Below are positions 2,783-18,996 of a stretch of 19,075 nt of DNA, piece by piece. This stretch comes from Candidatus Thorarchaeota archaeon. Lineage in GTDB: Archaea > Asgardarchaeota > Thorarchaeia > Thorarchaeales > Thorarchaeaceae. Each line of letters begins with the position of its first letter. Position 1 is the first letter of the stretch. The stretch is from assembly GCA_048882385.1 (NCBI GenBank), contig JBHLRQ010000058.1, positions 1 through 19,075 on the forward strand. Direction: 5' to 3'. The notes under the pieces were generated by a model that saw only the letters and a program-made list of their open reading frames with translations, did no database searches and was not told the origin of the DNA. The translations under genes and the position numbers were made by a program.

Positions 2783-3625
2783 GTGAGTTGGCAAATCGTG
2801 CGACGCTGTGAGTTCTGTGATAGTCCCGTTCCGGCGGATGCAACAGTCTGTCCGGTATGTAAGGAAACGATTGCTGAAGAAACCTTAGAGAGAATCCTTC
2901 CTATGCTGAAGAGACCCGAATCTCCAGAAGTCAGATTCATGGGTACTGGAGAAAGGATGTGGGGAGTTATCAGAAGACCATCATCCACATATCGAGACAT
3001 TGGTCAGAGACCTGATGCCGCAGGTCCATTCATGCTTATCATAATCAATGCGCTAATTATGGCAGGTCTCTTCATAGCCCTATCCTCAAAAGTTACAACA
3101 ACGGTTGTTGTAAATGCAACATCAGGAGCTACTGCACCAGCAAGTCTCATAGTTAGCTCTGAAGGAGGAATTGTTTGGACAGCAGCTCTGGCTGGAATCA
3201 TGCCCACAATCATGCTGGGAATAATCTATCTTATGATAGGAACGATATTTGCCCATTTTGCGTTCAAACTCACAGGTGGTACAGGAGGAAGGGGGAAGAC
3301 ACTCTCAATAATAGGATACAGCATGATTCCTGTAATCCTTGTTCGTCTGATCTCAATCATCATCGTGCTTGTAGCTCTACCGGGATATCCAGGAGTACTA
3401 AGTCCAGGAGAGCTTGTGTCTCTAACACCAGCAATAGTCGATTGGGCATACAACTCAAGTGTCTGGTGGACCATAGATGTCATGACAACTGGATCGTTTA
3501 TTTGGACTGGGTACTTGTTGATATTCGGAATCCGGGAAGCACATGATACTTCTACATTATGGGCGACTGTGATTGCTATAGCCTGTATACTTGTTTTAGG
3601 GTGGACTTTCTGGCAAGTTCACTAG
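2783..3625 (+). CDS. Zinc-ribbon + Yip1-domain membrane protein
   Basis: N-terminal CEFC...CPVC ribbon. Then 'MWGVIRRPSSTYRDI', five TM helices, 'AHFAFKLTGGTG...TLSIIGYSMIP' and 'WTGYLLIFGIREAH', the usual Yip1-family pattern. Confidence 0.8.
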   Translation: MSWQIVRRCEFCDSPVPADATVCPVCKETIAEETLERILPMLKRPESPEVRFMGTGERMWGVIRRPSSTYRDIGQRPDAAGPFMLIIINALIMAGLFIALSSKVTTTVVVNATSGATAPASLIVSSEGGIVWTAALAGIMPTIMLGIIYLMIGTIFAHFAFKLTGGTGGRGKTLSIIGYSMIPVILVRLISIIIVLVALPGYPGVLSPGELVSLTPAIVDWAYNSSVWWTIDVMTTGSFIWTGYLLIFGIREAHDTSTLWATVIAIACILVLGWTFWQVH

Positions 3626-10998: not shown

Positions 10999-12348
10999 TT
11001 ACCCTGAGGTCACTGTAGCAGCATCTATTACAAAGGATGGCGTTATCATCGAGAAGGTTATTTTTGTGTCTGCGCCAACTCGAATAATCCGCTTAAGTAA
11101 ATCACGCATATTGATACCGACTAATGTGTTCTTGAGTGGATGTTTAATTTCCCCATTTTCAATGTAGAATCCTTCAAGTAACATTGCACTTAGGTCACCA
11201 GTCGTCATGTTGGGACGGTCTCCTGTTCGGTTGCAGAGAACACCTCGTTCAATCTCAGATATTAGATCATCAAGTGTACCTGTTCCAGGAGCTAGGATGA
11301 AATTCGATGTGGAAATTGATGGTAGACCGGAATATGATGGACGTCTCGCGTTACCGGTATTGGGAACATCATCCTTGTTAGCTGTGTAGGAGTTGTGCAG
11401 CAGGCTCTTGAGCACACCTGAATCAATGATCGATGTTTGTTGGGAAGGATAGCCTTCATCGTCAAAAGGTCTCGAGCCAATTCCTGATTGTAAAAGACCA
11501 TCATCAGTGATGCTTACAATATCAGATGCTACCTTATCTCCAAAAGCATCCGATATATACGAACGTCCCATCTGGACCTCCTCAGCACTTACTGCACCAG
11601 CAAATCCCCTTCCTATTATCGTGCCAGCACCGATTGGGGAAAATACTACAGGCATCTCACCGCCTTCAATGATTTTGGGTCCTAAGCTATTCAAAGTAAG
11701 TCTTGCTGCGTTCTCACCAATGTATTCAGGATCAATGTCACTCAATTTCCTTGATATCTGATAATCATAACTTGTTGTTTGATCATCTCCCTCTTTCACG
11801 ATTGGGAGAGAATATAGGGTGATTGAAGTTCTCTTAGAAGACTTATCGACGCCAAGGGAATTTACTATTGCACTCACACTCGAAGATGTCTGGATACCGC
11901 CGTCTATGGCATAGTCTCTTCCTTCAAGAACTTGTTTGGATGCATCCACTACTCGAATAATATAGTCTGCAGCATCATCTGATGAGAGATCCTGGATGTG
12001 TTTATCATAGAGTCCTTTGACTTCTGGATATGCATGCTCTGATGATGGAAGACTCACAAATTCAGGATCTGGAATGGATGCCTTTGCCAAGTCGTAAGAC
12101 TTTGAAACAGCCTCTTTGACATCTTCCTCATATAGAGTGGTCACATAGGCAAAACCAATTTTCTTGTCTATAACTGTCCTAATTCCGATTCCAGCATCAT
12201 GTTGTTCTTCTGCGCCTTTAATGGCGCTGTTCTCCACATCAATGATGAACGCATTTGATTGACCAATGTAAGCCTCAGCTTGATCGGCGCCTAATTTTTC
12301 CGCCATTTTGACAGCTCGCTCAGCTATCTCAAGAAATTGTTCCTCCAT
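10999..12348 (-). CDS. pmbA: TldE/PmbA family protein (non-catalytic partner)
   Basis: 'GADQAEAY', 'GIGIR', 'SRPFDDEGYP', 'TGNARR', 'STSNF', 'TGDLS', 'GFYIENGEI..P'; no HExxH; directly downstream of tldD. Confidence 0.9.
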   Translation of the reverse strand: MEEQFLEIAERAVKMAEKLGADQAEAYIGQSNAFIIDVENSAIKGAEEQHDAGIGIRTVIDKKIGFAYVTTLYEEDVKEAVSKSYDLAKASIPDPEFVSLPSSEHAYPEVKGLYDKHIQDLSSDDAADYIIRVVDASKQVLEGRDYAIDGGIQTSSSVSAIVNSLGVDKSSKRTSITLYSLPIVKEGDDQTTSYDYQISRKLSDIDPEYIGENAARLTLNSLGPKIIEGGEMPVVFSPIGAGTIIGRGFAGAVSAEEVQMGRSYISDAFGDKVASDIVSITDDGLLQSGIGSRPFDDEGYPSQQTSIIDSGVLKSLLHNSYTANKDDVPNTGNARRPSYSGLPSISTSNFILAPGTGTLDDLISEIERGVLCNRTGDRPNMTTGDLSAMLLEGFYIENGEIKHPLKNTLVGINMRDLLKRIIRVGADTKITFSMITPSFVIDAATVTSG

Positions 12349-12349
12349 A

Positions 12350-13735
12350 TCACATTCCTCCTACAGGGACAGCGCGAATCCTTGCATGAGGACCTCCAGT
12401 CATTGTTGGAATAGCCTGGCCATCTTTACCGCAGGTTCCAGCGTCAAGCTCGAAATCTTTGCCGATAGCGTCAATCTTTGGTAGTACCTCTAGAATATTA
12501 CCGGCAAGTGAAACATCCCTTACCATCTGACCTTCCTCACCATTCTCAATCACATAGCCGTGACTTGCTTGGAACATGAACTGACCCTTGGCAGGTTGAG
12601 TATATCCATAATTGAAACTACAAAGGAGAATCCCACTCCTTGTGTCCTCCAACAACTCATCGAACTCCCAATCTCTGGGTTCCATGAATGTATTACTCAT
12701 TCGAGGAAGAGGCGGATACATGAACGACTGACTTCGTGCAGATCCGTTGAGTTCCATTTCAAGTCTACTAGAAGTTTCTAAGCTATGAAGAAGTTCATTG
12801 AGTATTCCATCTTTGACTAATACTCGCTTTTGTGATTTAGTACCCTCCCAATCATATTCGTAGGAGCCCCGTTTCCCTTCTAGAGTAGGGTCATCGATTA
12901 TGCTCAAGAAATCGGGACCCATACACTCGCCAATTTTATCTTCCAACACTGTGGAATGAGCTGGCCAATTATCAGCTTCTGCTGCATGTCCGAAAGCCTC
13001 GTGGGTCAAGACACCGTTCAATATTGGATCCATGACCACATCATAGACTCCACCTTTAGCAGCCTGTGAGGACAACAAATCAATGGCAAGCTTGGCTGCA
13101 GTAGTGCCTATATTTAGAGCCGCCTCAGTTTCCATCTCCTCAAAACCACCGCGTACACCTATCGACTTCTGCATTCGTTGCCTATTTGCTCCGTCTTTTG
13201 CAGTTGGTACAGAAATTATTCTCGGAACAGAATTTTGAATTGAAACATTAGTACCAAGGGAATTCGCTATGATGAGTTCTGTCCAGAGTTCTCCATAGAT
13301 TGAGCGTGTTGAAGCAATACGTTTGTCAAAATCTCGAGCTTGGTCATCTATCATCTTGACAAAGCTCATTTTCTCCTCAATAGATATTGAATCAAAGGGT
13401 TTCTTCACATTCAACTTGAATTTCCCTTCAAATGAAGGTCCATCTATTTGGAATTTCTCCTCCACCCGATCACGGGTAGCTAAAGCTAGTTTCGCAACAG
13501 ATTCACCTGTAGAGCGCATTCCATTTGGAGTCAAATCAGTGGTCTGAGCGAAAGCCCAGGCACCATCAATGAAAGCTCGAATTCCAGCACCTCTCATTCG
13601 CGAGGCGATTGATTGTTTGGTTACAGCATCATTAATTTCGATGATCGTCGTGGTGGTGTTTTCCATACGCACATCAACAAAACTAGCACCAACCTTAAGC
13701 GCCGACTCAATGGCAACCTGAGCAAGATCTTCCAT
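12350..13735 (-). CDS. tldD: TldD family metalloprotease
   Basis: 'HEAFGHAAEAD' metal motif, 'DDPT', 'YDWEG', 'PRMSNT', 'GTCGKDGQ', 'GGPH'. Confidence 0.93.
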   Translation of the reverse strand: MEDLAQVAIESALKVGASFVDVRMENTTTTIIEINDAVTKQSIASRMRGAGIRAFIDGAWAFAQTTDLTPNGMRSTGESVAKLALATRDRVEEKFQIDGPSFEGKFKLNVKKPFDSISIEEKMSFVKMIDDQARDFDKRIASTRSIYGELWTELIIANSLGTNVSIQNSVPRIISVPTAKDGANRQRMQKSIGVRGGFEEMETEAALNIGTTAAKLAIDLLSSQAAKGGVYDVVMDPILNGVLTHEAFGHAAEADNWPAHSTVLEDKIGECMGPDFLSIIDDPTLEGKRGSYEYDWEGTKSQKRVLVKDGILNELLHSLETSSRLEMELNGSARSQSFMYPPLPRMSNTFMEPRDWEFDELLEDTRSGILLCSFNYGYTQPAKGQFMFQASHGYVIENGEEGQMVRDVSLAGNILEVLPKIDAIGKDFELDAGTCGKDGQAIPTMTGGPHARIRAVPVGGM

Positions 13736-13904
13736 ATCTATCGCCTTTGAATTGACCTGTCACCAAGTAAATGGGATATAACTCATATGGCTTGTACATT
13801 CAGTCATCAACAGCGGTAGGTGTATCATTCCTAATGTTTCCCATATAATACACGGATTATTCACAGATAATTCCTCGATGAAAATAGATACCGGAGGTTC
13901 TCAG

Positions 13905-15482
13905 TTGACAGAAGACCCCTCGCTTGGAAAATGTAGATCTTGTCAGTCTAATATTGCCACTCACATGTGTGAAGACTGTGGAGCAGCCATTTGCTCTGAT
14001 TGTCTTGATTCAAACTCAAGTGAGTATACTGTGTGCGGTGACTGTCATCACACTTTGGGTAATCCGGAATATGGAGAAAAATTCGAAGAATGCCCAGAAT
14101 GCGAATCTGAGAACTTGACCAAAGGTCGAAGAACAACTGACATCTGTCCCAGATGTCACTCATCAAGGGTTGTACTTCTGGAAGACAGAAGGAGATCCCT
14201 CGCACTAGATATGCGACATGCAATTATGAGTATCCAGTATGGTCATACCAAACTGAGAGAATTCACGAACAAACTTGTTGTTGCTAAGAGATTGCTAGTA
14301 TCTCTCAGGATGGCTAATTTTCTCCATTATAGATGGATAGAGGAGAAAATTGAAGGAATCCATCAAGAATTGCCTGCAATAAAGAACAGGATTGCAAGCC
14401 AAGCAGAAATTATTGCAAAAAGAATGGCTGCAGAAACTAAAAACTTCATTGATTATACACTATGGAATCCTTCACAATTTCCATTCATTGAAGGAATAAC
14501 AAACAGGATTACTGAGATGGGAATTTATTACAAACAGAACGTTGAGCAGGCTCTTGAGCCACTTAGAATTACCCTGAAAGATGTTCGAAGGCAGCTAGAT
14601 GGATTGGATTACTACAAAGGGCAATTCGCAACATTCTATGAGCACAACCAACTCTCCGTCGGAGAACTCCCAGTATGTGCATTACCAGATGTCAAGGTGG
14701 CAGGTAGTGATTTTCTCAAGAATGACAAGGCTCTTGGAACTCTGTTCTTGACAAACAAAAGGTTCCTTTTCATCGCTGAAGTTGGGAGAGTACGGAAGAA
14801 AATGGAAACAGTCTTCGACTTCCCACTCATCTATTTGAAGTCGATAGAGGAAGATGGACTGTTAAGGAAGAGATTAGTACTCAAACTCAAGCAGGGTGAC
14901 CTCAAGATATCATGTTCTGACCAGACAAAGAAGGTCTTTCCAGATTATGTTGAGATTGCTAGGAAATTTGACAAATACATTCAAACAGACATGCAGAGAG
15001 TAAGGAAAATCGAACAGCAAGATGTTAGCACTAGTGATGTAAGACTCAAGATTGAAGGAATGGTATATTCTCTTCTCTCGACTAATACAAGGTCGCAATA
15101 TGTCAATGAGGACCCAATTACACGACCTGCTCCCAGATACAAATATTCTGGCTGGGATACATCTCGTGCTCGTCCCACACCTTTTGGAGATTTTTATGGA
15201 CGACCAGAAACGTTTCGTGAAGAACTTGATAGAACTGTGAAACGTTATGATCAAGGTCGCAATCAAAGGCCAATATATGACTTGAGTCCAAAGATGCATG
15301 CTCTTCGGAGAGATGCTGCTTCAATTGAGAATGCTATTCGGGACACTGTTCATATGCTACGTAGCGGACAACTAATGGCTGAAGATTTCATCAGAAGATA
15401 CAAGGATTTGATGAGAGATTCATATCACAACAGACGTGAGATGGACCAAATCTCACGTAGTGCACGTGACAGCCTTTGGTAG
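13905..15482 (+). CDS. ESCRT-associated multidomain protein: six-CxxC Zn-finger region, coiled coil, PH/GLUE-like domain, Pro/Arg-rich linker, steadiness-box-like C-terminus
   Basis: CRSC/CEDC/CSDC/CGDC/CPEC/CPRC; 'GTLFLTNKRFLFI...FPLIYLKSIEE'; 'IENAIRDTVHMLRSGQLMAEDFIRRYKDLMRDSYHNRR'. TTG at 13905 follows GGAGG (13893-13897); ATG at 13878 is the alternative start. The CDS is secure; domain labels are less so. Confidence 0.7.
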   Translation: MTEDPSLGKCRSCQSNIATHMCEDCGAAICSDCLDSNSSEYTVCGDCHHTLGNPEYGEKFEECPECESENLTKGRRTTDICPRCHSSRVVLLEDRRRSLALDMRHAIMSIQYGHTKLREFTNKLVVAKRLLVSLRMANFLHYRWIEEKIEGIHQELPAIKNRIASQAEIIAKRMAAETKNFIDYTLWNPSQFPFIEGITNRITEMGIYYKQNVEQALEPLRITLKDVRRQLDGLDYYKGQFATFYEHNQLSVGELPVCALPDVKVAGSDFLKNDKALGTLFLTNKRFLFIAEVGRVRKKMETVFDFPLIYLKSIEEDGLLRKRLVLKLKQGDLKISCSDQTKKVFPDYVEIARKFDKYIQTDMQRVRKIEQQDVSTSDVRLKIEGMVYSLLSTNTRSQYVNEDPITRPAPRYKYSGWDTSRARPTPFGDFYGRPETFREELDRTVKRYDQGRNQRPIYDLSPKMHALRRDAASIENAIRDTVHMLRSGQLMAEDFIRRYKDLMRDSYHNRREMDQISRSARDSLW

Positions 15483-15483
15483 G

Positions 15484-16086
15484 TTACATTCCAAGCTCAC
15501 GTTCGAGCGCTTTGATATCCTCTTCCAAAGAGTCAGCTTCACCAACAGGACCTGTAGCAGCAGCATCTGCGAGACCAGCTTCAGCATCTATCTCATGCAT
15601 AGCTGATGCTAAATCATCGGATGTGATTTCCATTGTTGAATCCAGGGCATCATCAGATATGCTTGCTTCTATCTCAAACTCTTCAAGTCTTCGTGCAATC
15701 TCATCAACATTTGCAACAACCTTTGTTGCATCAGAACCATCACCAAGCATCCCAAGTATCTTGGCAACTTCTTGAAGTGCCTTAGTTGTTTTTGCTGATG
15801 TTTGAGCTCGATTTAGGTGTGCAAGAATCTTGAGTATCTGTAGTCGAGATTTGTCAACAGCCAATGCGTATCTCCTAAACCGAACCATTTCAGTTGCATA
15901 AGTTCGGTAGGCATCTGTTTGGCCAGCTTTTCGAGCACGAACTGCGCGAGCCTTTGTGTCGCGTTCTTCCTTCTCTAGCTTATTCCTCTGTCGAGTCAAC
16001 TGCTTTGATAGAATCCGAAGGCGGCTGGATACTTCTCCTACGTCTGGTTTCTTCCTACCCCAAGAGAATGCTTTCCTAATACTCAA
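15484..16086 (-). CDS. ESCRT-III subunit, Vps2/24/46 (Snf7-domain) type
   Basis: Basic helical N-half 'LSKQLTRQRNKLEKEERDTKARAVRARKAGQTDAYRTYATEMVRFRR', acidic C-half, terminal MIM1-like helix 'DSLEEDIKALERELGM'. TTG at 16086 follows AGGTGA (16097-16092); the ORF track starts at 16104. Confidence 0.9.
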   Translation of the reverse strand: MSIRKAFSWGRKKPDVGEVSSRLRILSKQLTRQRNKLEKEERDTKARAVRARKAGQTDAYRTYATEMVRFRRYALAVDKSRLQILKILAHLNRAQTSAKTTKALQEVAKILGMLGDGSDATKVVANVDEIARRLEEFEIEASISDDALDSTMEITSDDLASAMHEIDAEAGLADAAATGPVGEADSLEEDIKALERELGM

Positions 16087-16262
16087 GAATTTCACCTTGT
16101 ACAAGGGGATGATAATCAGGTCATTCAGAGAGTATTACCGTTTAAACCTTCGCAGTTTGCAGCAATAGAGAGCACATTTCACTATTTAGACCATGATGTG
16201 CGTATGCGCTGGGTGTGACAGAAATTCTTAACACTTTACACGCAGTGTTCACATGAACTCGA

Positions 16263-17486
16263 ATGGCAGGATCAGGTAGCGACCGGATTGACCAAGGGTT
16301 GAAAAAACTCTTAGAAGAAGCAATTTCACTAGATCAAAGAGGTCTGAAAAAAGAAGCTTGCCAACATTATCTCAAAGCAAGCAAGATACTCATCAAGATG
16401 TCTAATTCAACTTCGTTGCCTTCAGTCAGGAAACACTACATTGACAGGGCACAGGAATGCGTTGATAGGGTTAGGTACATCTCGGGAATCAAGAAGAAGT
16501 CGAAAGGACCAGTGGATGGTCTTGTTGCTCCTCCGGCTCTTGATATCGGAACAGAACCAGCATCAATCAAAGAACCAACAACCGAAGCTGATGTAGATGA
16601 CGAGTCCAAGAAATTGCAGGAAATGATTTCGGATACAATCCTAACAGAGAGACCTACCGTCAAGATGGTTGAGGTTGCAGGACTTGCAGATGCAAAGCAA
16701 GCCATAGACGATGCAATAATCGCTCCTATGAAACACCCCGAACTATTCAAAGGAAAAGCCAGACAGCCTTGGCGTGGTATACTCTTCTATGGACCTGCAG
16801 GTTGTGGAAAGACTCTTGTTGCCAAAGCAGTTGCATCTGAGGTCAATGCTACATTCTTCAATGTTTCAGCCGCTAATATTGTAAGTAAATGGCTTGGCGA
16901 ATCAGAGAGATTGGTGTTGAACCTGTTTCAACTCGCGAGAAAGAACCAACCAGCTATCATATTCATTGATGAGTTGGATTCAATAGGTGTTTCAAGGTCG
17001 GGAGATGATGTTGGTGGAGAGAGGAGATTAAAGACTCAACTACTCACAGAACTTCAGGGACTCGCTAGTAAGGAGGATGAGAGGATTACTCTGATTGGAG
17101 CCACAAATCTACCCTGGGAGCTTGACTTTGCGTTGAGATCCAGGTTCGAGAAGAAGATACACGTTCCATTGCCAGACAAGCAGGCAAGATCAAAAATATT
17201 TGAAATTCACATGGAAGATGTCGAAGTTTCCCCAACGGTGGACTATGATGAAATGGCAGACCTTACCGAGGGGTATAGTGGACGTGATATTAGTGTGGTG
17301 TGCAGAGAAGCAGCCATGGAACCCATCCGAGACCTCCAACGTTCAGGAAGAATGGATGATTCGCAGGAGATACTAGACATCCGACCAGTGTCGAGGGATG
17401 ACCTTTTGCAGGCAATTGAGAACATTCGGCCTGCAACTCCACCGGAGGATGTCAAAAGGTACATTGATTGGGCGGAGGGTTCCTAA
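16263..17486 (+). CDS. vps4: Vps4 AAA+ ATPase (MIT + AAA)
   Basis: MIT domain 'EEAISLDQRG...ACQHYLKA...YIDRAQE'; Walker A GPAGCGKT; pore loop SKWLGESE; Walker B IIFIDE; 'GATNLPWELDFALRSRFEKKI'; 'TEGYSGRDI'; ESCRT context. Confidence 0.95.
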   Translation: MAGSGSDRIDQGLKKLLEEAISLDQRGLKKEACQHYLKASKILIKMSNSTSLPSVRKHYIDRAQECVDRVRYISGIKKKSKGPVDGLVAPPALDIGTEPASIKEPTTEADVDDESKKLQEMISDTILTERPTVKMVEVAGLADAKQAIDDAIIAPMKHPELFKGKARQPWRGILFYGPAGCGKTLVAKAVASEVNATFFNVSAANIVSKWLGESERLVLNLFQLARKNQPAIIFIDELDSIGVSRSGDDVGGERRLKTQLLTELQGLASKEDERITLIGATNLPWELDFALRSRFEKKIHVPLPDKQARSKIFEIHMEDVEVSPTVDYDEMADLTEGYSGRDISVVCREAAMEPIRDLQRSGRMDDSQEILDIRPVSRDDLLQAIENIRPATPPEDVKRYIDWAEGS

Positions 17487-17489
17487 GTT

Positions 17490-18233
17490 TTGGGTGTCAA
17501 AGAGAGAAGACGTGAAAAGCCCAAAGCCAAAGAAGCGGCAAAGCCTGCTGATAAAGAGGATGTGAAAGCAGAACCAGATGCAGTACTAGAAGAAACTGAA
17601 CTTGAAGAAATCACCCATACCCCAGAGGTGGTAGTTGAAACAAAGGAATCAACAGCAACTATAGACCCAAAGCAGGTAGCAGAAGCTCCCATTGAAGAAG
17701 TTGTTGAGGTTTCGCAGTCAATCGATTATGCAATACCTGCATGGGGAGATGTCGAGGAAACAGAGTGGATGTATAGTGTGCCATCAAGAAAAGAGGACAT
17801 GGAACTCTGGGCAAATGAATGGTCAGACTATCTACTTGAATGGACTGAGAATAGGAAAGTCCACGTGCTTTCACTTGCTACCTTTATTAGTGAGCCACCA
17901 TTCAAGGACTTAAGAGACAAGGTTGAATCATTTAGAAAGATTGCAGAGGTTCTTGTTGACAAAGAAGTTGCAGAATGGAGAGATAGAAAAAAACGTCAGC
18001 TTCGGATATACTGGAAACCTCTTGAAGATTGGGCAGACTTGGTATATCAGTGGGCAATTAAAACAGGAAAACTTCGACTAGATGTCAAGTCAATAGTGAT
18101 CCAAGAATCTTCCGAAGATTTTGCAAGCCTTCCTGAAAAAGACATCCACATTGTCTTGGCACTTATGGTGGAAAAAGGGCTTGCTGAATGGGTGGATACA
18201 AAGAAAGGAGCTATAATCATTTCAACTGACTGA
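17490..18233 (+). CDS. vps25: ESCRT-II Vps25-like tandem winged-helix protein with acidic N-terminal extension
   Basis: 'WANEWSDYLLEW', 'AEWRD', 'IYWKPLEDWADLVYQWAIKTG' (Vps25 W-[RK]-x-x-E-[ED]-W...Y-x-W pattern), 'LMVEKGLAE'; starts 3 nt after the vps4 stop (TTG start). Confidence 0.88.
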   Translation: MGVKERRREKPKAKEAAKPADKEDVKAEPDAVLEETELEEITHTPEVVVETKESTATIDPKQVAEAPIEEVVEVSQSIDYAIPAWGDVEETEWMYSVPSRKEDMELWANEWSDYLLEWTENRKVHVLSLATFISEPPFKDLRDKVESFRKIAEVLVDKEVAEWRDRKKRQLRIYWKPLEDWADLVYQWAIKTGKLRLDVKSIVIQESSEDFASLPEKDIHIVLALMVEKGLAEWVDTKKGAIIISTD

Positions 18234-18234
18234 T

Positions 18235-18996
18235 TCAATAGGCTCCAGTTGTTCGATGGTCAGCTGATGTGTCGCGTGCCCTTAGACCAGGGAAATAGTA
18301 TCGACCCCCCGTTGAGAAACGAATGTCTGCTACAGCCATTCCTGTGTCAACAAGACTTGAGAGAACTTGCCGAGCATGGTCTTCAGACCACTTGAGCTGT
18401 AATATCACTTCTTCAACTGAAACATATCCCTTTGTCGCAGCCAGATTGATTACATCAGCTTGATCTCGTCGAAGTTCTAAGGGTCTCAATTCAACGACCT
18501 TAACTCCACCTCTCAGTGTCCGAATTCCTGGAATCAAGCCATGGTCAGACACTCGGTTGACCGCCTCAATCACATCATTATACGTGACGGATTCTAATTC
18601 GGGAAGACGTCTAACTACCTCAACAATTAGCTCGGCGAGACCCATTAGTCCTTTTGAAGAATGTTCAGTTGCTACATCAAGTATAGCTAGCCCTATGTAA
18701 TCAAAGAACTGGTCTGTAGTCATGCCCTGAAGTGACCGTCGTGGAGTGTGTTCACCAAGCTTCAGCAGTGTTGCTGCATGAGGGAAGACTTCGACAATTC
18801 TTTCTCCGGAAATAAAACCTCCAATGTCTAATCCCATTCTTCGCAGGTTTTCAATCTGTGACCGAACATCTTCAAGGAGTGCTTGTGACTCCCGCTGAAA
18901 GGACCTCACGTCAACGGATCCCAAATCGTACAACTTCTTCAGTTGGTCCAGTGTAGCAATTGAGGCGTAAAGTTCTGAATGGAGCCGCTCGTGCAT
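18235..18996 (-). CDS. vps22: ESCRT-II Vps22/36 (EAP30) protein with N-terminal Vps28-like helical hairpin
   Basis: C-terminal part 'FFDYIGLAILDV...GLMGLAEL...VTYNDVIEAV...PLELRRDQADVINLAATKGYVSVEEVILQLKWSEDHARQVLSSLVDTGMA..D...YYFPGL' closely follows SNF8/Vps22. The N-terminus 'ELYASIATLDQLKKLY' resembles Vps28. Confidence 0.88.
   Translation of the reverse strand: MHERLHSELYASIATLDQLKKLYDLGSVDVRSFQRESQALLEDVRSQIENLRRMGLDIGGFISGERIVEVFPHAATLLKLGEHTPRRSLQGMTTDQFFDYIGLAILDVATEHSSKGLMGLAELIVEVVRRLPELESVTYNDVIEAVNRVSDHGLIPGIRTLRGGVKVVELRPLELRRDQADVINLAATKGYVSVEEVILQLKWSEDHARQVLSSLVDTGMAVADIRFSTGGRYYFPGLRARDTSADHRTTGAY

Follow-up and report, generated by a model that had tools for sequence, protein, structure and literature searches.

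The protein encoded at one edge of the analysed DNA is best explained as a natural chimera, in which a Vps28 headpiece domain (residues 1-80) is joined through a linker of about 13 residues to the winged helices of Vps22. To this reading, with its inferred origin and docking included, we assign a probability of roughly 80%. The window, i.e. the whole stretch of DNA that was analysed, is the entire 19,075-bp contig C58 of a Thorarchaeota metagenome-assembled genome. This genome comprises 3.70 Mb in 256 contigs and is 95.3% complete, a point that tells somewhat against this reading.

The fusion gene (18235-18996, minus strand) is a complete open reading frame of 253 codons plus stop with an ATG start, and it is the last member of the ESCRT cluster in the window. 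Three parts can be recognized in its product. Residues 1-80 (18757-18996, minus strand) form the Vps28 N-terminal (steadiness-box) domain, as identified by BLASTP, hhalign, Foldseek and VIA-align. Residues 81-93 (18718-18756, minus strand) constitute a poorly conserved linker of low confidence, as judged from the pLDDT and from variable columns in the orthologue alignment A1. Residues 94-253 (18235-18717, minus strand, stop codon included) comprise two Vps22/EAP30 winged-helix domains and a disordered tail, as identified by Pfam, PDB, hhalign and Foldseek searches. In the full-length AlphaFold model, which was built on a 35-row alignment and has a mean pLDDT of 80.5, two winged helices were found after residue 94, while residues 78-93 were without secondary structure and the pLDDT of block 81-90 averaged 54.

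Genes for other ESCRT components adjoin the fusion gene. Convergent with it is the gene of the ESCRT-II subunit Vps25 (17490-18233, plus strand; Pfam PF05871, E 6e-15, residues 108-195), and then come a Vps4 ATPase with MIT, AAA and Vps4_C domains according to Pfam (16263-17486, plus strand) and an ESCRT-III protein of the Snf7 family (15484-16104, minus strand; Pfam PF03357, E 4e-11). The same association of Vps25, Vps4 and ESCRT-III genes was observed at locus L012 and in G112, a genome of a sister family within the same order. Beyond them lies a gene for a 534-aa protein with Zn-ribbon, coiled-coil, PH and C-terminal hairpin parts (13878-15482, plus strand; DZR and zf-B_box, each at E 0.0013). 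At E <= 0.001, a search with the fusion protein gave 135 homologues; among the 120 that were listed, identity ranged from 60 to 94% and PF04157 was always present, and the named ones were nearly all from Thorarchaeota.

The original prediction, made from the letters alone, had proposed a Vps28-like N-terminus on a Vps22 protein, and the peptide that it quoted is present as written, being the translation of residues 1-81. Against the Pfam VPS28 profile (PF03997), residues 7-53 of the window protein aligned to positions 2-50 of 188 with an E-value of 0.23, and the score of 11.6 bits was below the gathering cut-off of 24.5. The SMTZ1-45 orthologue also remained below this cut-off with 19.3 bits, and the fusion protein of G112 exceeded it with 26.9 bits. 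The same weak match was given by 23 of the 35 orthologues scanned (the window protein and 34 of the 120 listed homologues, chosen for their spread of identity), the best E-value being 0.0016.

A profile of 34 N-termini, termed A2, was constructed from the window protein and 33 of the 72 related loci. When all PDB sequences were searched with A2, the four best matches were yeast Vps28 N-domain constructs (E 0.031-0.052), and the conserved motif of helix 1 was aligned in register. A search of 1.84 billion representative proteins with A2 gave 52 matches at E <= 0.001. Pfam annotation of 47 of them (five fragments of 49-84 aa were left out) revealed 24 proteins with VPS28 over the cut-off, two EAP30 fusions and one protein with UEV/UQ_con only; the remaining matches were three unrelated repeat proteins and 17 without any family at E <= 1e-4.

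Direct comparison with Asgard Vps28 gave a much stronger signal. Residues 7-80 are 40% identical to one Asgard Vps28 over 77 columns in a pairwise BLASTP comparison (E 2e-17). By hhalign, A2 aligned to 23 Asgard Vps28 sequences (taken from 30 loci of other Asgard genomes, with seven near-duplicates left out) with a probability of 99.0 and an E-value of 4.4e-18 over 77 columns, query residues 7-83 lying on Vps28 positions 1-77. As controls, A2 gave a probability of 0.4 against four Vps22 proteins of Asgard archaea outside Thorarchaeota, and of 3 against the Vps23-type hairpin of the neighboring 534-aa protein. Because of these controls, and because the full-length protein aligns to Vps22 over residues 97-243 only, both readings of residues 1-80, as ordinary helices of Vps22 and as a generic hairpin, are rejected. 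These residues are a true Vps28 N-terminal domain, with a likeness far beyond chance. The profile-profile comparison thus bore out the proposed Vps28 likeness, and also its specificity for the N-terminal domain of Vps28.

Structural comparison gave the same assignment. Foldseek matches of the full-length model were mostly Vps22/Vps36 chains and other winged-helix proteins, with Vps28 only at ranks 35-41; because of this dominance, the N-domain was modelled and searched separately. Its model (pLDDT 85) consists of a helical hairpin (residues 2-24 and 30-53) followed by three short helices at residues 58-77. All of the ten best Foldseek matches were Vps28 N-domains (2f6m, 2caz and 6vme) with TM scores of 0.65-0.72, and the superposition on human VPS28 gave an rmsd of 2.2 Å over 79 columns. 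The Foldseek E-values (0.075-0.49) were weak, which the small size of the domain would lead one to expect. When 48,161 chains were compared by VIA-align, only two reached Z >= 8 in the whole-model count and both were Vps28 N-domains, namely human VPS28 6vme_E (Z 11.4, rmsd 2.2, 78 residues aligned) and yeast Vps28 2caz_E (Z 9.3, rmsd 2.1, 78 residues aligned); a third row stood at Z 8.0 after re-alignment.

Helical hairpins are common, and 787 chains scored Z >= 5 with this N-domain, among them CdvA (Z 7.3 over 55 residues) and Vps23 hairpins (Z 7.1 and 6.9 over 56 residues). Table S3 of Makarova et al. (2024, mBio, PMC10936438) likewise gives CdvA at a probability of 85 for the same stretch. 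Residues 1-80 could on these grounds be taken for a generic helical hairpin, either a steadiness box or CdvA-like, with no special tie to Vps28. However, hhalign separated Vps28 from the Vps23-type hairpin by 99 against 3, and the match to Vps28 extends over 78 residues and includes the three short helices after the hairpin, whereas those to Vps23 and CdvA cover 55-56. Considering also the 40% identity to Asgard Vps28 and the presence of exactly one such domain in every genome with a match, we regard a generic hairpin as very improbable.

The two winged helices of Vps22/EAP30 occupy residues 94-240. Pfam EAP30 (PF04157) matched residues 92-224 at E 8.4e-13, with 49 bits against a cut-off of 26.8, and human SNF8/Vps22 (3cuq_A) matched residues 96-239 at E 2.9e-16. 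The hhalign comparison with Vps22 of other Asgard archaea gave a probability of 99.8 over residues 97-243 only, and the best Foldseek matches of the full model were 2zme_A (E 5.1e-7) and 3cuq_A. Of the 219 positions of the EAP30 profile, only 83-218 were covered. As the match begins at position 83, the usual N-terminal helices of Vps22 (positions 1-82) are missing. Vps22 proteins of Asgard archaea outside Thorarchaeota matched the same profile from position 1 or 2 and so have kept their ordinary N-terminal helices, which confirms the earlier claim that these helices are replaced in the window protein.

It might still be argued that residues 1-85 are ordinary Vps22/Vps36 N-terminal helices that have diverged, for they occupy the same position, and Foldseek strings the full model along Vps22 chains over 240-246 columns at an rmsd of 16-18 Å. 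This explanation is barely credible, since the EAP30 match begins at 83, the A2 probability against Vps22 is 0.4, the full-length alignment is confined to residues 97-243, and no Vps22 or Vps36 chain appeared among the N-domain fold matches listed by Foldseek and VIA-align. What was found, then, is a likeness to Vps28 and no better fit to the Vps22/Vps36 helices.

The other half of Vps28 is missing from the chimera. Its hhalign alignment to Vps28 ends at Vps28 column 77, and a profile of the Vps28 C-domain (A5, E <= 0.01) detected no such domain in 41 genomes of the window's family (0/41, window genome included) or in G112 (0/1). The same profile detected the Vps28 C-domain in all four control genomes of other families (4/4). 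The prediction that no C-terminal Vps28 bundle would be evident was therefore correct.

The distribution of the domain was then surveyed in 201 sampled Asgard genomes. A2 matched 133 of them, and none of these had more than one match. Of 43 genomes in the window's family, 40 had the match, which lay in a Vps22 frame of about 250-320 aa except for two truncated or disrupted frames (191 and 106 aa). In G112 it lay likewise in the Vps22 gene, whose 265-aa product is above both Pfam cut-offs (VPS28 26.9 bits, EAP30 55.4 bits). In all other Asgard families with an A2 match, the single match fell on a canonical Vps28 (PF03997) locus. PF03997 itself exceeded the cut-off in 134 of the 201 genomes, but among the 61 genomes of the window's family it did so just once, in a 441-aa coiled-coil protein. 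Besides fragments, the library of 1.84 billion proteins yielded no more than two clusters (at 50% identity) of full-length fusions. Among the genomes sampled, only members of the Thorarchaeota order have a Vps28-type domain on Vps22, and the fusion coincides with the absence of canonical Vps28 and of the Vps28 C-domain in the same genomes.

Several other proteins came up in the search for a canonical Vps28. A Thorarchaeota coiled-coil family of about 410-450 aa matched the PF03997 profile weakly, though along most of its length (over the cut-off in 1/61), and could conceivably represent a very divergent Vps28 relative; the "BAR-SB" protein KXH73277.1 in Table S3 of Makarova et al. (2024) is another candidate in which a Vps28 C-domain might lie. 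The copy in the window genome, a 515-aa coiled-coil ORF on contig C41, gave the best PF03997 match there and was not accepted as a Vps28, since this match (E 0.017) stands amid many coiled-coil matches. The second EAP30 match in the genome, a 685-aa protein on contig C86, has a C-terminal pair of winged helices and no Vps28-like part, and is a different protein.

As only 79 bp separate the start of the fusion gene from the contig end, and the genome is a metagenome-assembled one of 256 contigs, an assembly or gene-calling artefact that joined two genes may be suspected. The fusion is, however, intact in related genomes. The same single frame was found in 72 related loci of separate assemblies, including a 3.16-Mb chromosome, and the fusion occurs in the 40 family genomes mentioned above; M1 is invariant and the order of the parts is constant among the orthologues in A1. 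Because the frame is conserved in 72 loci, reads across the fusion point were unneeded, and we consider an artefact practically out of the question.

The gene order of other Asgard archaea indicates how the chimera may have originated. The 30 best Vps28 loci outside Thorarchaeota, which represent 12 families with several loci from one genus, were inspected for a downstream Vps22. A full-length Vps22 followed on the same strand in 28 of them, and the remaining two loci ended about 420-460 bp downstream. These Vps22 proteins covered the model from position 1 or 2 to 239-241, ordinary N-terminal helices included. The gap between the end of the Vps28 match and Vps22 ranged from 26 to 503 nt and did not exceed 120 nt in 19 loci. 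Since vps28 lies just upstream of vps22 elsewhere in Asgard archaea, a deletion between the two adjacent genes is the likely source of the fusion. If everything between the point where the Vps28 N-domain ends and that where the first Vps22 winged helix begins were deleted, exactly the Thorarchaeota protein would result, and this event would have occurred once. In a tree of the N-domain, a single branch supported at 100/99 separated the 34 Thorarchaeota rows from all others. As this tree is unrooted and based on 81 columns, it allows a single origin and leaves it unproven.

A putative binding partner of the Vps28 domain is encoded in the same cluster. Residues 464-534 of the 534-aa protein (15267-15479, plus strand) correspond to a C-terminal Vps23-type helical hairpin, as indicated by a weak Vps23_core match, tblastn and alignment A4. 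In the window genome, Vps23_core (PF09454) matched this C-terminus weakly, at E 0.6 (C58:15315-15434), which by itself is no evidence. Its orthologue at L012:11453-13030 gave weak matches to bPH_3 and to Vps23_core, the latter at E 0.044. Of the 72 related loci, 61 contained the C-terminal hairpin according to tblastn, and short contigs account for many of the other 11.

When residues 1-84 of the fusion protein were modelled together with this hairpin by using custom alignments, the predicted complex reached an ipSAE of 0.82, while the best of three controls gave 0.00. The runs agreed in at least 89% of contacts, and the pLDDT of the partner was at least 81. The mark applied to complex scores was attained by 116 of 157 solved complexes and by 2 of 215 mismatched pairs; as a similar complex (Vps23-C:Vps28-N, 2f6m) has been solved, the pass may reflect likeness only. 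The predicted interface is formed by helix 1 of the Vps28 N-domain (residues 3-40, including the invariant A11, A14, T15 and L16) and partner residues 491-520. The prediction supports docking of the Vps28 N-domain on the C-terminal hairpin of the neighboring Zn-ribbon/PH protein.

A different function has to be weighed here, namely that the Vps28 N-domain mainly pairs two fusion proteins, standing in for the lost Vps22-Vps36 helices, rather than docking on the hairpin of the neighbor. The text of Hatano et al. (2022, PMC9192718) reports self-interaction of Thorarchaeota Vps22 in the yeast two-hybrid assay, and the construct used, ThorAB25_09030, is this fusion. Moreover, the domain sits where, according to the text of Makarova et al. 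(2024, PMC10936438), helices that likely promote the Vps22-Vps36 interaction sit. Yet the winged helices could equally mediate the self-interaction, and the heterocomplex with the neighbor's hairpin, scored at 0.82 against 0.00 for the controls, engages the most conserved face of helix 1. We therefore consider such pairing unlikely as the main function. The two roles, self-pairing and hairpin docking, are mutually compatible.

Under the preferred reading of a chimera that docks on its neighbor, the Vps28 N-domain would form a bundle with the Vps23-type hairpin of the 534-aa protein, as the Vps28 N-domain does with the Vps23 C-terminal hairpin in the eukaryotic ESCRT-I headpiece. A cargo- and membrane-binding module would in this way be covalently tied to the ESCRT-II core, which would in turn recruit the Vps25, ESCRT-III and Vps4 encoded next door. 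The covalent link would replace the non-covalent contact of the eukaryotic Vps28 C-domain with ESCRT-II.

These points can be joined into a wider picture, to which we give even odds. It describes a Thorarchaeota order without a separate canonical Vps28, in which one vps28-vps22 deletion would have hard-wired the ESCRT-I headpiece onto ESCRT-II. Together with the Zn-ribbon/coiled-coil/PH/hairpin neighbor, the product would make up a merged ESCRT-I/II, in which two chains, connected by a Vps28-N:Vps23-C handshake, would supply a Vps36-like set of parts (a PH domain, zinc fingers and two winged helices). If this picture is true, the lineage is a natural experiment which shows that archaea reported to lack ubiquitin can do without a separate ESCRT-I and without the link through the Vps28 C-domain.

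ESCRT-I and ESCRT-II are separate complexes in eukaryotes, and their linkage bears on the Asgard origin of eukaryotic membrane trafficking. A lineage with a covalent ESCRT-I headpiece domain on its ESCRT-II core demonstrates that the junction of these complexes was fluid in evolution. For biochemical work, the Thorarchaeota fusion is moreover a simpler system.

The fusion of a Vps28 N-domain to Vps22 has already been published for the same protein family. Table S3 of Makarova et al. (2024, PMC10936438) lists residues 1-70 of the Thorarchaeota Vps22 KXH75178.1 under PF03997 with an HHpred probability of 99, as "VPS28 protein (N-terminal domain - SB)". KXH75178.1 corresponds letter for letter to L012:7992-8756 and shares 86% identity with the window protein across residues 1-253. 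The window protein is orthologous to this entry, which the table names "Vps22", and cog.002769, to which this entry would belong, is annotated as "EAP30/Vps22 family protein"; as regards the protein itself there is no difference. The accompanying text states of Asgard Vps22 that they "are fused to an SB", and so extends the fusion to the whole Asgard Vps22 family, whereas our survey found a Vps28-like N-domain on Vps22 in no genomes other than those of the window's family and a single one of a sister family.

Among the yeast two-hybrid orthologues of Hatano et al. (2022, PMC9192718) are "Vps22" ThorAB25_09030 and "SB" ThorAB25_08990, and no Thorarchaeota Vps28 is listed. The 534-aa neighbor is an orthologue of ThorAB25_08990|SB, and its architecture is the Znr_CC_PH_SB of Makarova et al. 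(2024). Self-interaction of Thorarchaeota Vps22 is reported by Hatano et al. (2022), whose text, the figure aside, does not state an interaction between Thorarchaeota SB and Vps22. A full-text search of the literature, figures and PDF supplements aside, found no statement of the restriction to the order, of the absence of canonical Vps28 and its C-domain, of the adjacent-gene origin or of the predicted partner. The present analysis adds the restriction to the Thorarchaeota order, the coincident absence of a canonical Vps28 and of its C-domain, the ancestral vps28-vps22 order and the predicted SB partner.

Compared with known systems, the fusion protein shares its N-domain fold and helix-1 motif with Vps28 (PF03997; 2f6m, 2caz, 2p22 and 6vme). 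Vps28 packs on a Vps23-type hairpin in the solved Vps23-C:Vps28-N complex, and the same packing is predicted for the fusion. In eukaryotes, according to the text of Makarova et al. (2024, PMC10936438), the hairpins of Vps28-N, Vps23-C and Vps37-C make up the ESCRT-I headpiece, and Vps28-C contacts ESCRT-II. The C-terminal helical bundle of Vps28 is absent from the fusion, to which the ESCRT-II part is attached covalently instead. With Vps22/SNF8/EAP30 and the Vps22 of other Asgard archaea (PF04157; 3cuq_A, 2zme_A and 1u5t_A) the fusion has the tandem winged-helix core in common, whereas their N-terminal helical domain (profile positions 1-82) is missing from it and replaced.

A further parallel is the UEV-Vps23-Vps28 fusion of Heimdallarchaeota (HeimAB125_14070), which, according to the text of Hatano et al. 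(2022, PMC9192718), likewise combines in a single chain ESCRT subunits that eukaryotes have as separate proteins. Frames of about 450-490 aa with a C-terminal VPS28 were also seen among our Asgard matches. HeimAB125_14070 joins two subunits of ESCRT-I and keeps the whole of Vps28, whereas the Thorarchaeota fusion joins ESCRT-I to ESCRT-II and has kept the Vps28 N-domain only.

Profile A2, built from 34 fusion N-termini, was searched against the library of 1.84 billion proteins (E ≤ 0.001), and it also matched proteins outside the fusions. Among these, P0139, P0141, P0144, P0146, P0151, P0156, P0158, P0159, P0167 and P0172 are only 123-153 aa long, with the Vps28-N-like domain spanning approximately residues 13-146, and none was assigned to a Pfam family at E ≤ 1e-4. 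These may be proteins made up of a free-standing Vps28 N-domain. P0128, a protein of 3237 aa with 24 Rx_N repeats, was matched in 26 stretches (E 1.3e-19). It is a false positive of the helical profile, driven by the repeats.

A family of coiled-coil proteins of about 410-450 aa, with orthologues in the window's family, matched the Pfam VPS28 profile PF03997 weakly over positions 10-185, i.e. most of the profile, and exceeded its cut-off in 1 of 61 genomes. The window's own genome encodes such a coiled-coil protein as a 515-aa ORF on contig C41 (L002:841-2388, minus strand), whose weak PF03997 match (E 0.017) lies amid many coiled-coil matches. This family could represent a highly diverged relative of Vps28 or the 'BAR-SB' protein of Makarova's Table S3, or the match could be a mere effect of composition.

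The same genome encodes a second EAP30-domain protein of 685 aa on contig C86 (L005:1432-3489, minus strand). It has a long coiled coil with a weak V-SNARE match, a CarboxypepD_reg-like domain and, at the C-terminus, a winged-helix pair of the EAP30 type, which scored 24.1 bits in one scan and 27.8 bits in another. A similar 810-aa frame was observed in G112, a genome of a sister family.

Within the window, Vps25 (17490-18233, plus strand) matched the ESCRT-II domain at residues 108-195, preceded by a charged N-terminal extension about 100 residues long. Extra N-terminal subdomains of Asgard Vps25 are mentioned by Makarova 2024 (PMC10936438). The contig that carries the ESCRT cluster also encodes a 280-aa Yip1-domain membrane protein (2783-3625, plus strand; PF04893, E 9.3e-22) and two tandem TldD/PmbA genes (10999-13735, minus strand). 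In Thorarchaeota SMTZ1-45, two genes are located upstream of the fusion at a distance of 2-4 kb, one for a 434-aa Ras/Roc-family GTPase (L012:4752-6056, plus strand) and one for a leucine-rich-repeat protein (L012:3860-4492, minus strand); in the window, the contig ends before the corresponding region.

The 534-aa protein of the window (13878-15482, plus strand) has Zn ribbons at its N-terminus, followed by a coiled coil and a PH-like domain, and ends in a conserved hairpin. This architecture is named Znr_CC_PH_SB by Makarova 2024, and the 534-aa protein is orthologous to the one used as Thor 'SB' by Hatano 2022 (PMC9192718). Eukaryotic Vps36 contains a PH domain and zinc fingers, and the same kinds of parts are united in the 534-aa protein.
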